In this document: piece after piece, positions 1-6,000 of the stretch
Layout: each line of letters starts with the position of its first letter
How positions within the stretch are numbered: the first letter of the stretch is position 1
Source of the DNA: Escherichia coli
GTDB lineage: Bacteria > Pseudomonadota > Gammaproteobacteria > Enterobacterales > Enterobacteriaceae
Assembly: GCF_011045215.1 (NCBI RefSeq)
Contig: NZ_CP049202.1
DNA length: 64,000 nucleotides
Direction: 5' to 3' (one strand)
Made by a program: the position numbers

Positions 1-3000
1 GTCGTCCCACAATACGGCCTTCCGGAAGATGAACCCTCTCCGGGACCGGAACAGAAAAAGAGATGCCGGCACGACCTGCCAGCGGCAAAAGCCGCCATTC
101 CGGCTGGCTGCGGTACTGTCCGGGCGTCACGCCGGCTGTTTTCCTGAATTCACGGTTAAATGTCTGCTGGGAATCAAATCCCAGACTACAGGCAATATCC
201 TGAAACCCACGTAACGACAGGCGACAGAGCAGGGCAGCCCGACTCAGTCGCCTGCGACGAATATATTCGCCCAGCCGCATTCCCGTCTCCAGCAGAAAAA
301 TACGCTGCAGATGTCTGCGGCAGTAACCGGAATAAGCACTCAGTGAATGAATGCTCATCCGTTTACCACTTTCAAGATGAAGTTCGATATATTCGATAAT
401 CCTGTCAATGGTCATTTTCCGTATCAGCGCCGTCCCTGTCTTTTTATCATTCATGTTGTTTTTCTGATTTCACATCATGTTTTCAGACCAAAAGAAAATG
501 ACACCCCTCTGACTCCCCCGTTCCCCTTTATGAAGCCCGGCCCGGCACGCAGAGAGAAAACATGACCACCAACACAGAAGGGAATACTGAACAACAGTTG
601 CGTCTCATTCACCAGACTGAATCCCAGGTCTTCTTTCCAGCCCGGACCGTAAAAACCTCCGGTATTGTTTTCCACAATGACATCACTTCCGCGCCCCATC
701 ACACGGAACACATCCCGGAACGTATAAGTCATCCTGACGGAATAACTTCCCGCGTGCGAACCAATATCATGACGGGATGATGAGAATTCACGCAGGGATA
801 AAAATGAGAGACCCGGACTCAGGGTAAAATTACCGGACGTTATCGTACTGCTGATTTCGGGGGAAACAATCAGGGCATTTTTTCGCTCCCACCCCAGCAC
901 CTCTTCATAATTTTCATCACCTTCCATCCCGCGACTCATGTTGCGAACCCGGGCATATCCCACGCCCAGACCTCCCCTGACTGAAACATGTTCAGACAAC
1001 CTGACGGTGACATCTGTCCCCACAAGCGTGCCATATGACCGCCAGTGAACCACGGCACCATCATCAACATCCCCTTTCAGGTCAATATAACTTCCCCTGA
1101 GGTACACCCCGGAGCAGACCATCCCCGTGTCATACAGACATTCGCTGTGCCAGGGAACAGTCCAGCGGGAATATTTCCCCCCTCCCTCTGTCCGCAATCC
1201 GGAAGCACTGATGTCATCCGAAAAATGCATACTTAATATTCTGGCATAAGTGCCTGACAGTTCATGACTGTACCCGTAAACCGGTATGACAATACCTGCC
1301 AGAAGTAAAATGAGACGCCATGCTCCCCTGTGATGTTCCACCTGAATGTTCATAACATCCACTCCCTGCAACCCAAAACACACCCTCTCACGGACAGAAT
1401 CTGTCACGGGAGACACTGTCCCCGGCCCGGGCCCGGGACGCCAGCCCCGCAAAATCCTTCCCGGTGTAATACCCTTCCGGTACCGGAAGACGCTTCATGT
1501 CCTGTCCGGGCCAGAGCTGTAATTCCGCCAGCACCGCGGCTTCCGGTCTGAGAGGGAGCGACAGGCGCAGTGGCTTCATATCGCCCCCCGGAACAGATAC
1601 GGGAAGCCGGTCCGCATCAACATCATAATTGCGCTTTATCACCAGCCACTTGTCCGGCAGAAGACACCGGCTGTTCCACCACACCCTGTCCAGCATACGG
1701 AGCTGAAAACGGGTACGGGACACCGCGCCACCTCCCAGATGAACCAGCACCTGTTTCAGCGCATTCTGCATGGCCGTTTCATACATTCGCCTGTCTGCCG
1801 TCTGTCCGCTGAAGATAAGAGAGAGGGCCACTCTTGCCCCCAGAAGATTGGACCACAGATCCTCCGGTGAAAATGCCGACACAGTTTCAGGATAACCCGG
1901 TACGGATTCGAAGCCGTACCACTGTGCAATTTCATGCCATACCGCCAGCTGGTATGCCAGACGGGCTGATATTTCCGCGGCCAGCACATAACGGTCCCGG
2001 ACGGAAGACGGGGGAGTGAATGCCCGGAAAACCAGCCGCCGTTGTGCCAGTTCATCTCTGCCCGGAGACAACACAAACGCCTGCCCCAGACGTGGCCACA
2101 GACGGGTAAAAATAAACACCGTCATATCCGCCGTATCACGGACATGCGCCGTATCAACAAATCCCCCCTGCGTGGTGAAAATGATACCGTTATGCTCTCT
2201 TCCGCCCCCTGTCAGAGACAACATGCCGGAAACAAAACTGTCGTTGTAATGGTGTCCCCCGGTACTGCCGGCCTCCACCACATTGTCCAGATGAAAGAAT
2301 GGCAATGGTGTACGGAGCCACGGCACCCTCACCCCCAGGTCATACCCAAACGCACAGCAGGCCCGTAACCCCTCCGGGGGGGATAACGGAGGCATAACCG
2401 GCCAGGCACTCGTTGTCATTTCCTTCCCGTCCAGCCATAAAGGAAGCGGAAGTGCGGCCTGCGCCTGACAACACCATAACAACAAAAATAACAACCATTT
2501 TATTTTCTGTTGTCTGTCAGTAATATATCCCATACTGCATTATTCCGGTTATGAAATTCACTCCGCAGTAATATATGAATGCCGTTTCAGATATTACCGG
2601 ATATCAGATTTCCGTCCTGTCTTTGTCAGACAAGAAACCACTGTCTGGACAACCTGTTATTATTTTCGTCGTAATCCACCAGTCCGGCTTCATACAAAAA
2701 ATTCAGACAGATACAACACTGGCGCACAGACATATCCAGTCCGTACGCAATATCAATAACACGAAACAAGACTTCACCATATTTATCCTCCCGGAATTTC
2801 ATCCAGAGGAGCAGTGCTTCACAGTCATCCTGATATAATGCGGTATTGTCCCTGCGTTTCATGGTTTTGTCACACATAGATAATCTCCTGTGCATGCGGG
2901 AATAACATACACATTGCAACAAATATTCCACAAAGATATTAATATATTAAATTTTATTATCGTCAGCCCGGCATTATTTCTTTTTTGTGCACCCGCTGAA

Positions 3001-6000
3001 TCTAATCATGGTATTTATCCTGATACGGCGATAATTATATTATCGCCGTATCCACCGGGCTGTCTTCTCCAGGTTCAGAACCGGTATTCACCGGAAACAA
3101 AAAAACTTTTCCGCTTTTCAAACCCCGCTTCGGCGATAAGACTGAAGTGCCGGCTGGGGTCATAGCGTATGCCAGCCAGCATGTTCCACGGTTTTTTCAG
3201 ATGCTGCCTGACATCAAAACGCGCATCCCCCGTTTTATTCAGTTGTGACAACCCCGCCTGCAGTGCAGGTGATGGCATATTCAGGTCATTCAGTTTACCC
3301 CTGAAGCGCTGTTCAACATCCTGGTACATCCCCCCGACCCATACACTCATTCTGCCCGCAGAACTCTGCAGTACCGGTACCGAAGGGACATCAAAGTAAT
3401 ACCCCACCCGGGGTGAGAATGTGACAGTATCAATATGACCATCAAGAATATCAAAGCGTGTCTGCGTATAATTGGCATCCAGCGAGGTGAACCAGTTATT
3501 CATCCCGCCCACCAGGGTGGTGCCGACACCATATGTGGTTCCCTGAAAATCCAGACGGAACTTCAGGTTCTGTGTACCGGCCCCCGGAAACGCCCCGCCG
3601 GTAAACAGAGGTGTTCGGACCCGGATATCTGATACAGACTGTCCGGTTGTTTTTCCCAGAAGCCCATACAGATTCATAAAAGGAAACACCCATGCATCAA
3701 ACCGGAGTGTTCCGGTATGACTTTTCTGTCGGGTCTTTCCGGCATCAATATGTACAATATTATCCAGAGGAAGTCTGCCCAGGTGTAACCCGGAAAACCG
3801 GATACTGTCCACCGATATCCCCTGCCGGATTTGCATATAATTCAGATTAACACCAAATGGTTCCGGCAGTTCATAACCTTCTGCCAGCTCCCGGAAAAAC
3901 GGCAGTACAGACTGTTCACGTCTGACTTCCGGAGCAGCAGACACTTCAGCAGCCCCCGCCTGGTGACTGAATACCCCCGGCAGAACAGCAGCCATCAGGG
4001 CCGCCTGAATACAGCTTTTCATCATCATCCTGGTTACATCAGCGTTATTGTGTTTCTGAAATCACAGCCATTCTGCTGTGCAGCCATCAGCCCTCGCCGT
4101 ACCTCATCAAGCAGGGCATTTCGCCTTCTGTACTCAGCCCGTTTTCTTGCAGGGATTTCACCGGCATCTTTACGGGGTAGTTCCGGAGGCAGGTACCAGA
4201 ACCCATCAAAATATTTTCCTCCGGCAGACTTCCAGCACTCACTGTAACGGGCAACAAACCGGCCCTTTTTCTGGTAAAAATAACGCAACTGCCGCATCAC
4301 ATGATTGTCCTCACTGACAGCCACTATCCCCCCGGCTCCGCACATCCCTGCCACCACACTCAGTGCCTCACAGAGCAGACGGCGCGGAAACAGGCCATAA
4401 CAGGCACGGGTGGCCTCCCGGATAATCGCTGTGCCCGTCCCCGCTGCAGGCCCCTGCAATCCCCCGACAAACACCATCCGGTGCCCCTGCCAGTAAAGAA
4501 GTGTGAAGGAAATACGGGTGATAACCTCACCATTAAAACGCAGTATCAGCATCAGCTCCCCCTCGCGGTCAAAGCCACAGGGGGAACAACTGATATCCAG
4601 CCACCTGCCGTCCTTCCCTTCGGTGCGGACAAGCGATGTTTCCCGGCTGACGTTCAGCATTCGCCTGACCTCCTGCGGAAGGCTCCGGATAAGATGATAA
4701 TGGTCAAGAACTGCCTGTACCCGGAATCCGGTGCGACTGTTCCGGAAGAGATAGGGACGGTGAATCTTGGCCGGTAAGGTCGGGTTGACCTCAAGAAGAT
4801 CGTCGATATCGCTCAGTTCACACAGGGCACGAAAATAATGGGTTGTGATCAGAGGATGACAACAACAACGCAGCAGAAATTTATAACGAAACTTTCTGTC
4901 CTCCCACTTCCCTCTGTGGAAAGTACGGCCAGTCATCAGTTTCACAACAAGCGAAATAACAGACAGATTACTCATAATATTCAGATGGTATGTCAGATAT
5001 CAGATAACACAGTCCATAACTCAAAAACAAAATACCCGTCTCCTGTACAGGCAACATCAGAAGGGCAGACAGCCCAGCGACAACAGCCTGTCAAGGGTTA
5101 CCTCCATACTGAAACGACTCATCACATCCCTGCGGGCCATGGCCGCCATTTCCGCGAACCCGGCCGGTGCGGACAGGTACGCACGCAGGGCTTCCAGCCA
5201 GGCCTGCCGGTTATCCGGCGGGAGCAGAATACCGGTCCGCTCATGATGAATGACGGAAGATAACCCTCCTGTATTACTGGCCATTACCGGCACACCACAT
5301 GCAGCAGCCTCCACTGCAGCCATACCAAATGATTCACAGGTGGAAGGCATCACCATCAGGGAAGCCACCCTGTAGAGCGGATATACCGGCGTAAGATAAC
5401 CGCATATCAGTACACCCCCTTCCATCCCCAGCGCATGAATTTTACGGCGTAACAGGCGCTCCTCTTCCGGACGCCCGCCACCGACTATCAGCCAGTGAAA
5501 CTGGCCTCCCTCACGTTTCAGATGAAAGAGTGTTTTCAGCATGAAATCCAGGCCTTTCTCCGGACGTAACATTCCGATCTGAACAATGACCGGATGAGGT
5601 GCTCTCGCTTCCAGCCATTCACGAACATGTTCCGGCAGGGGCATGCTCATGGCTTCCCGGATTGCATCAAAATCAAATCCCGGTGAAACCACCCGGATGG
5701 TGTTTGTACATCCCGCAGCCTGCAGCGCCTCCTTCATCGCCTGTCCGGGGACAGCAACGGCATCACAGAAGTGATTCAGCGAAAACACCTCCATCTTTCG
5801 GGTCAGATATGTCTTCTGACGGACAATACTGAACCTGCCCGCCCCTCCGGTAAGCGTGGCCCGGGTCAGAGCCACTGTGTTACTGTCATGTCCGCTGTGA
5901 CACACCACCATATCCGGCCGGAAAGTCAGAACAAGACGACGGAGTCGCCAGACTGATGAAAAATGCAGACTGTTCCTGAAAGGAATATATGTAACCGCAG

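Follow-up and report, generated by a model that had tools for sequence, protein, structure and literature searches.

In the 64,000-nucleotide stretch of Escherichia coli virulence-type plasmid DNA analysed here (contig NZ_CP049202.1, hereafter the window), a diverged direct repeat at 2587–3216 (copy 1) and 48125–48777 (copy 2) carries in each copy a small open reading frame (ORF) for a putative remote relative of the fimbrial regulators PefI, FaeA and PapI, together with the 3' end of a gene encoding an outer-membrane beta-barrel. PefI, FaeA and PapI are small winged-helix proteins that tune the transcription of chaperone-usher fimbrial operons. The explanation that we consider quite probable is that the repeat consists of a small regulator gene that carried along part of the neighbouring gene, and that its history is that of a mosaic plasmid, in which the regulator was inserted behind the barrel gene, copy 2 descended from a diverged sister of the resulting module, and this copy landed in the slot that belongs to pefI in Salmonella, with a PefI-like role for the encoded protein.

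The two copies have the same orientation and lie 45 kb apart in the window. BLASTN and a global MAFFT alignment confirmed the two-copy diverged repeat described in a first-pass annotation of this sequence, which had placed it at 2560–3240 and 48120–48800 with a length of about 650 bp and 85–90% identity. The true ends are slightly inside those limits, the copies measure 630 and 653 bp, and their identity is 85.3% when gaps are ignored and 79.2% when they are counted (527 matches, 91 mismatches and 47 gap columns). BLASTN reports the repeat as two halves, one containing the ORF (2587–2993 against 48125–48528, 87.2% identity over 407 bp, E = 1e-132) and the other the spacer and the barrel tail (3005–3216 against 48575–48777, 78.3% over 212 bp with 4 gaps, E = 1.5e-32). 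Segment by segment, identity is 82% in the 3' flank of the ORF (39 bp in copy 1), 89.6% in the ORF itself, 85% in the proximal spacer, which in copy 2 alone also holds a 35-bp block (48535–48569), 73% in the distal spacer and 85% in the barrel tail, the latter with nine gap columns. The alignment thus bears out the composition first proposed for the shared segment, namely the 3' end of the barrel gene, an AT-rich spacer and the small ORF.

A remnant of the barrel gene is present in copy 2, where the interval 48650–48790 had been singled out as the place to look for it. It spans 48645–48777 (minus strand), is the counterpart of the last 47 codons (3075–3216) of the intact gene in copy 1, and carries three frameshifts, an in-frame stop codon and substitutions at residues that are invariant in the family. 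The earlier description of a truncated pseudogene therefore stands, with a length of 133 bp rather than about 120. The stub is 85.7% identical to the copy-1 tail and 63–70% identical to other family members, and the C-terminus of the barrel is native to its family, since all homologues cover the protein to residue 317. As the shared segment spans both the barrel tail and the regulator, and the barrel is reduced to a pseudogene stub at the second site, the two moved as one piece, in agreement with the first-pass annotation, which was also right that the repeat is not assembly redundancy.

The small ORF of copy 1 (2626–2877, minus strand) is predicted to encode an 83-amino-acid protein and that of copy 2 (48142–48414, minus strand) a 90-amino-acid protein with 81% identity to the first, the seven additional residues being due to a 1-bp deletion at the stop codon. 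Both ORFs are intact and both have the AGGAG ribosome-binding site noted before, 7 nt upstream of the ATG. They differ at 26 nucleotides, with a synonymous divergence (dS) of about 0.19 and a ratio of nonsynonymous to synonymous divergence (dN/dS) of about 0.5. The first belongs to a protein cluster found on hundreds of contigs (P0001), the second to a cluster found on four contigs that all have the same context (P0002). With the small ORF as query, a word-indexed search among 5.8 billion proteins returned only these two clusters, and the sole additions from a full HMMER scan of 1.84 billion representative proteins were P0003 (E = 5.9e-5) and P0004 (E = 1.2e-4). P0004 matches the Pfam FaeA family at 1.6e-7 and is the sole member of the four-sequence alignment to pass E ≤ 0.001. 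Profile-profile comparison (hhalign) of the two window copies with four independent FaeA-positive proteins gave a probability of 97.4% over 66 columns, which rose to 98.8% once P0003 and P0004 were added, while a PapB-family control scored 0.45%. With both proteins included in the profile, the two best PDB matches were PefI (2JT1) and PapI (2HTJ).

The genomic contexts of the two relatives point in the same direction, both being PefI/FaeA-like proteins encoded at the pefI position of pef-like clusters. The gene for P0003 comes directly behind an operon orthologous to that of the window and is followed by a GerE/SrgD-like and an AraC/SrgC-like gene, and P0004, itself FaeA-positive, lies in the order PapB-FaeA-DsbA-P0004-Rck-like-AraC-shf-capU-virK, a pefI-srg-like cluster. 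Since these two proteins are its only relatives among the 1.84 billion scanned, the small ORF product is, by transitive homology, a putative and very divergent member of the PefI/FaeA/PapI family. The original label "PapI-like" thus holds as a remote homology established through two intermediate proteins, and not as a match to the Pfam FaeA family or to an NCBIfam model, which neither copy gives. In both copies the predicted recognition helix reads SVRQCCIC (residues 53–57, at approximately 2707–2721 and 48244–48258), FaeA-family proteins carry SVYQAR at this position and P0003 has SVRQC like the small ORF; the copy-1 protein contains 5 cysteines in 83 residues.

How the regulator came to lie behind the barrel gene, a step that the first-pass annotation had not noticed, can be read from related modules. 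In a plasmid lineage whose barrel is 60–65% identical to that of the window, the gene order is shf-capU-virK-barrel-DUF4056-unknown and the small ORF is absent. In five such loci (L018–L022) the DUF4056 gene starts 15–30 bp after the barrel stop codon or overlaps it, and the sequence past the stop, TGA-ACATAACGGAAAAAACTGCATATGG, leads straight to DUF4056. The window has these two halves, ...TTCTGAAC and CATAACCGGAATAATGCAGTATGG, about 505 bp apart (2566–3072, minus strand), with the spacer and the small ORF in between, so that the ancestral "TGA ACATAACGG...TGCATATGG" is broken. Because the halves are contiguous in the related loci and split here, the comparison shows the regulator gene and the roughly 200 bp upstream of it as an insertion placed directly after the barrel stop codon that separated the barrel gene from its ancestral downstream partner, the DUF4056 gene (1388–2533, minus strand). 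This event produced the copy-1 type of module. A 14-nt imperfect inverted repeat (12/14; 2542–2555 and 3074–3087) brackets the insertion; its arms are host sequence, one from the region of the barrel stop and the other from the DUF4056 leader, and before the insertion they would have paired into a small hairpin spanning the stop/start region of the coupled genes.

The same junction is found in copy 2. Together with the native C-terminus of the barrel and the closeness of the stub to the copy-1 tail, it sets the direction of descent: on sequence grounds, copy 2 must derive from a diverged sister allele of the copy-1-type module, and not the reverse, and it would have retained from it the decayed 133-bp barrel tail.

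Copy 2 sits in a second informative place, likewise overlooked in the first-pass annotation. It is co-oriented with, and at the 3' end of, a Pef-family chaperone-usher operon (48952–54765, minus strand) with genes for a PapB-like protein, a 182-amino-acid major subunit, an 808-amino-acid usher, a 236-amino-acid chaperone and proteins of 186 and 281 amino acids. This operon mirrors Salmonella pefB-A-C-D-orf5-orf6 gene for gene, and pefI comes next in Salmonella, where the full order is pefB-A-C-D-orf5-orf6-pefI-srgD; copy 2 thus occupies the pefI slot. The usher shares 59% identity with PefC and the chaperone 62% with PefD, RefSeq labels the usher "PefC/AfrB family", and the major subunit matches the NCBIfam PefA model at 5.5e-25, which is below the curated cut-off. 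An orthologous operon at another locus (L024) shares 78.5% amino-acid identity in the usher, 83% in the chaperone, 69% in the major subunit and 64% in the 186-residue protein. Encoded beside a chaperone-usher operon with a PapB-like regulator, copy 2 has the surroundings expected of a PefI-type gene. Copy 1 lies between the barrel gene and DUF4056, in a module that follows a YadA-like adhesin gene in the window and, on many contigs, a fimbrial cluster that has a FaeA gene of its own.

The simplest history of this arrangement would be a deletion. The pef-like operon and the shf-capU-virK-barrel genes are co-directional in three loci (L006, L008 and L024). A deletion or an illegitimate recombination may have collapsed a stretch of the type pef-like operon ... 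shf-capU-virK-barrel-regulator and so brought the regulator into the pefI slot. On its other side copy 2 abuts a ColE1-type fragment (47700–48125, minus strand; origin-side region and a rop gene without its first 14 or so codons), whose homology ends sharply at 48125, exactly where that of the cassette starts, with little or no microhomology at the joint; a separate illegitimate event would have brought it in. The last fimbrial gene (48952–49797), which encodes a 281-residue protein with a signal peptide, has no homologue in L024 (325 residues in that position), in Salmonella orf6 (284 residues) or in plasmids other than CP010124, and is a candidate hypervariable adhesin. Relatives of the 3' end of the operon could not be used to date the junction, because this gene is without homologues there.

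One could also imagine that the ORF was native to the pefI slot, was copied from there to the barrel gene, and that the barrel-adjacent allele later replaced the native gene by recombination, homologous at one end and illegitimate at the other, and brought the barrel tail with it. The two nearest relatives of the small ORF are indeed both in pef/srg-type clusters, one of them at the identical position in an orthologous operon, and the 505 bp inserted in copy 1 resemble a pefI-type gene with about 200 bp of upstream intergenic DNA, the corresponding gaps in L024 and Salmonella being 244–260 bp. However, such a scheme requires two transfers where one deletion would do, and no native spacer or recombination joint is visible, the interval 48778–48951 matching no other sequence compared. 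We regard it as unlikely.

The first-pass annotation had instead read the divergence between the copies as an old duplication, and this is the part of its interpretation that is not borne out, whereas the shared segment, the stub, the joint movement of barrel tail and regulator and the absence of redundancy do. Copying of the module in cis, followed by divergence in place and erosion of one copy, would agree with the presence of both copies on one molecule, 45 kb apart and in the same orientation, and with the stub, which indicates that copy 2 was once longer. The distribution of the two types argues otherwise. Copy-1-type cassettes (609 index blocks, with the same order in all ten contexts shown) are 99.8–100% identical and are common, with hardly any variation, in plasmids of E. 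coli and E. fergusonii from bovine and ovine material, the source also of the best matches to the IS-rich, IncF-type plasmid DNA of the window (IS, insertion sequence). The copy-2 type is known from four contigs and from plasmid CP010124, always in the same context and at 98.5–99.7% identity (99.7% in CP010124, 98.5% in L007). The two types are separated by a divergence of approximately 15–20%, and no intermediate alleles were found between them, so that the graded divergence on a single replicon expected of an intramolecular duplication is not what is seen. E. coli C5 carries the two copies on separate plasmids (CP010123 and CP010124), the complete arrangement of the window is matched by no PLSDB record, copy 2 is bounded by illegitimate junctions, and the surrounding DNA is an IS-rich mosaic. 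The dS value, the discrete alleles and their separation in C5 favour two diverged alleles of one module united by plasmid recombination over duplication within the molecule, which seems to us quite improbable.

That the approximately 640-bp unit is an autonomous or mobilisable element, of the miniature inverted-repeat or cassette type, is hardly credible, in spite of its two unrelated contexts and of the clean insertion flanked by an inverted repeat in copy 1, because the shared segment reaches 142 bp into coding sequence native to the barrel family, the flanking repeat is host sequence and not a pair of element ends, copy 2 shows neither terminal repeats nor target-site duplications, no recombinase is encoded, and only two contexts occur in 5.8 billion proteins. 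A mobile-element reading was accordingly rejected from the ends of the shared segment.

Under the mosaic history preferred here, both copies would be functional regulators with their own promoters. By analogy with PefI, they are probably small transcriptional modulators of adhesin expression, and possibly of motility. PefI is a regulator of pef and also represses flagellar genes together with SrgD (PMC3224193). The mode of action would have to depart from the textbook one, since the GATC sites on which the PapI/PefI mechanism depends are absent from the fimbrial control region: there is no GATC in 54354–55137, the 780 bp upstream of the major-subunit gene, whereas Salmonella pef has two, 102 bp apart (5473 and 5575 of L028). 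The textbook mechanism thus cannot apply as such, and a classical switch based on Dam methylation of GATC sites and Lrp is unlikely.

This absence is also the first of several observations that weigh against the assignment, role and history proposed for the small ORF. Copy 1 gives no match to Pfam FaeA (PF04703) even at E ≤ 10, and no NCBIfam model matches either small ORF. The profile built from the two copies alone found neither PefI nor PapI, nor anything else relevant, in a PDB search, and gave no significant alignment with Salmonella PefI alone. The AlphaFold model of the small ORF, obtained with a two-sequence alignment, has a mean predicted local distance difference test (pLDDT) score of 60, with four helices and no confident wing, and its quality did not permit a fold search; the size of the product fits a single winged-helix domain of approximately 70–80 residues. 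A dN/dS of about 0.5 is compatible with function, and with only 26 differences it is weak evidence of constraint. A promoter scan of both spacers gave nothing above background, so that no promoter can be assigned. Finally, the intact donor expected under the deletion model, a copy-2 allele beside a full barrel gene, was found in no collection searched: tblastn in plasmids yielded nothing new, and exact-pattern scans gave 0 matches in species-representative genomes and 1 match in JGI metagenomes, of the copy-1 type.

The spacers themselves differ between the copies. In copy 1 the AT-rich spacer upstream of the small ORF (2878–3074, minus strand, 197 bp) holds a perfect palindrome at 3022–3052, 23 nt past the barrel stop codon, with 14-nt arms (GATACGGCGATAAT-ATA-ATTATCGCCGTATC) and without a U-run, and hence not a canonical terminator. 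In copy 2 the spacer (48415–48644, minus strand, 230 bp) has a degenerate equivalent (approximately 48597–48620; 7/9 pairs, no compensatory changes). The 35-bp block that it alone contains (CCTCCCTCATCCGGAGG...) includes a CCTCC...GGAGG hairpin; the sequence CCACCAGACCGGCTTC belongs to the copy-2 allele. Promoter and terminator scans gave no signal over a shuffled background and no site conserved between the copies, and Rfam had no match in either copy.

Compared with known systems, the arrangement of copy 2 is closest to that of Salmonella PefI (2JT1), a protein of approximately 70–90 residues whose gene immediately follows the last structural gene on the same strand, in an operon that has a PapB/PefB-like gene upstream. 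The small ORF product differs in having N-R-L-S-R-Q in place of the conserved G-K/R-G ahead of the C-terminal W-x-L and a cysteine-rich predicted recognition helix (QCCIC); a direct sequence match to PefI is lacking, no srgD-like partner follows the small ORF, and copy 1 is not beside a fimbrial operon in the window. With PapI and FaeA (PF04703; 2HTJ) the small ORF product shares a remote profile-profile homology, a similar length and a C-terminal W-F-L motif. The genes for PapI and FaeA, from the pap and K88 fimbrial systems, precede the operons that they control, and the proteins work together with Lrp at pairs of Dam-methylated GATC sites; here, in contrast, the regulator gene is downstream of the operon and the GATC pair is absent. 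The pseudogene stub on an intact gene, the sharp junctions and the dead ColE1 rop alongside are those of hitch-hiking gene fragments in IS-rich mosaic IncF virulence plasmids, and nothing sets the case apart from ordinary IncF mosaics except that the surviving gene lies in the slot of its own distant homologue. The biology is thus ordinary plasmid mosaicism, with a hitch-hiking stub on an unannotated and remotely PefI-like putative regulator.

A more ambitious proposal would make the small ORF the founder of an unannotated, cysteine-rich PefI-like sub-family, recruited into an envelope-remodelling operon (shf-capU-virK-barrel-DUF4056), where it would couple adhesin expression to modification of the outer membrane or of lipopolysaccharide, with copy 2 kept by selection as a substitute for the lost pefI in a Pef-type operon without Dam/GATC phase variation. 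We put this forward only as a speculation that is unlikely to hold. On the more modest explanation given above, a protein annotated as "hypothetical" on hundreds of plasmid contigs would gain a name and a testable role as a remote PefI-like regulator, seen moving with the stub of a neighbour into the slot of its own distant homologue. The analysis also draws attention to a widespread and uncharacterised set of outer-membrane genes, encoding the barrel, a BamA/TamA-like protein and DUF4056, and it leaves the understanding of fimbrial regulation and of plasmid evolution unchanged.

The intact barrel gene of copy 1 (3075–4028, minus strand) encodes a 317-residue protein of a family without a Pfam model. 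Its description as an outer-membrane barrel was upheld: the protein has a signal peptide (N-terminus MMMKSCIQAALMAAVLPGVFSHQAGA) and a C-terminus ending in SGEYRF, with the terminal YRF counted in favour of the assignment, and AlphaFold, using 34 homologues, predicts a beta-barrel with 11 strands called (pLDDT 79.5). The significant fold matches in the PDB are all outer-membrane barrels; the best in Foldseek were FapF, the beta-domains of EspP, EstA and BrkA, and OmpT/Pla (E = 3e-7 to 1e-4, but template modelling scores of only 0.3–0.4). Pfam gave nothing significant for the protein, with OMP_b-brl as the best match at E = 0.18, and more generally Pfam, NCBIfam and PHROGs assigned no significant family to the small ORFs, the barrel, the 281-residue fimbrial protein or the 325-residue protein encoded after DUF4056. 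The family is widespread in Enterobacterales, where its members are annotated as "hypothetical" or "lipoprotein".

In three contexts inspected, Klebsiella aerogenes (beside gyrB-yidA), a Serratia proteamaculans plasmid and the E. coli plasmid p12A2 (L003, L004 and L005), the barrel gene is the first of a set that continues with a BamA/TamA-like outer-membrane protein of approximately 380 residues and DUF4056, the last not being among the annotated genes of the Klebsiella stretch. The plasmid module of the window is without the BamA/TamA-like gene; the 325-residue gene after DUF4056 was considered as its displaced counterpart and ruled out, as there is no similarity. DUF4056 has recently been assigned to the "Lipocone" superfamily, predicted to be lipid-active (bioRxiv 10.1101/2025.01.14.632903). 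The upstream part of the module (4034–6994, minus strand) comprises genes for a shf-like deacetylase, a capU-like family 4 glycosyltransferase (GT4) and a VirK/DUF535 protein, so that copy 1 lies in a co-directional deacetylase-GT4-VirK/DUF535 cluster as in shf-capU-virK of the enteroaggregative E. coli plasmid pAA and in SfpgdA-gtr4-virK-msbB2 of the Shigella plasmid pINV. The gene after virK is msbB2 in the Shigella locus (PMC7355660), whereas here virK precedes the barrel gene, the small ORF, DUF4056 and an uncharacterised gene of 292–325 residues.

Within the fimbrial operon, a 26-nt perfect palindrome (53791–53816) lies immediately ahead of the usher gene and overlaps the major-subunit stop codon; a stem-loop in this place is a typical mRNA-stabilising or attenuating site in fimbrial operons. 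The upstream region of the operon is cut at 55138 by an IS3-family element. Fragments of IS3, IS66, IS21 and Tn3 and internal repeats are abundant in the surrounding DNA, as in a scrambled plasmid region, and Rfam recognised an ALIL pseudoknot, the frameshift signal of IS3-family elements, at 14478–14594 and a group II intron domain at 20178–20264. The adhesin gene near copy 1 (8385–11912) encodes a trimeric autotransporter of the YadA/Ata type with 1175 residues, and contains at 9653–10937 a 471-bp unit repeated about 2.7 times with 99.4–99.8% identity; in related plasmids the gene varies in length (1383 residues in L011) or is interrupted by IS66. Further along the window, a partial second PapB-like coding remnant (58935–59096), 52% identical to the first, lies beside a gene for a Rob/SrgC-like AraC regulator of 281 residues (59396–60241), and the two may be leftovers of another cluster of the pef/srg type.

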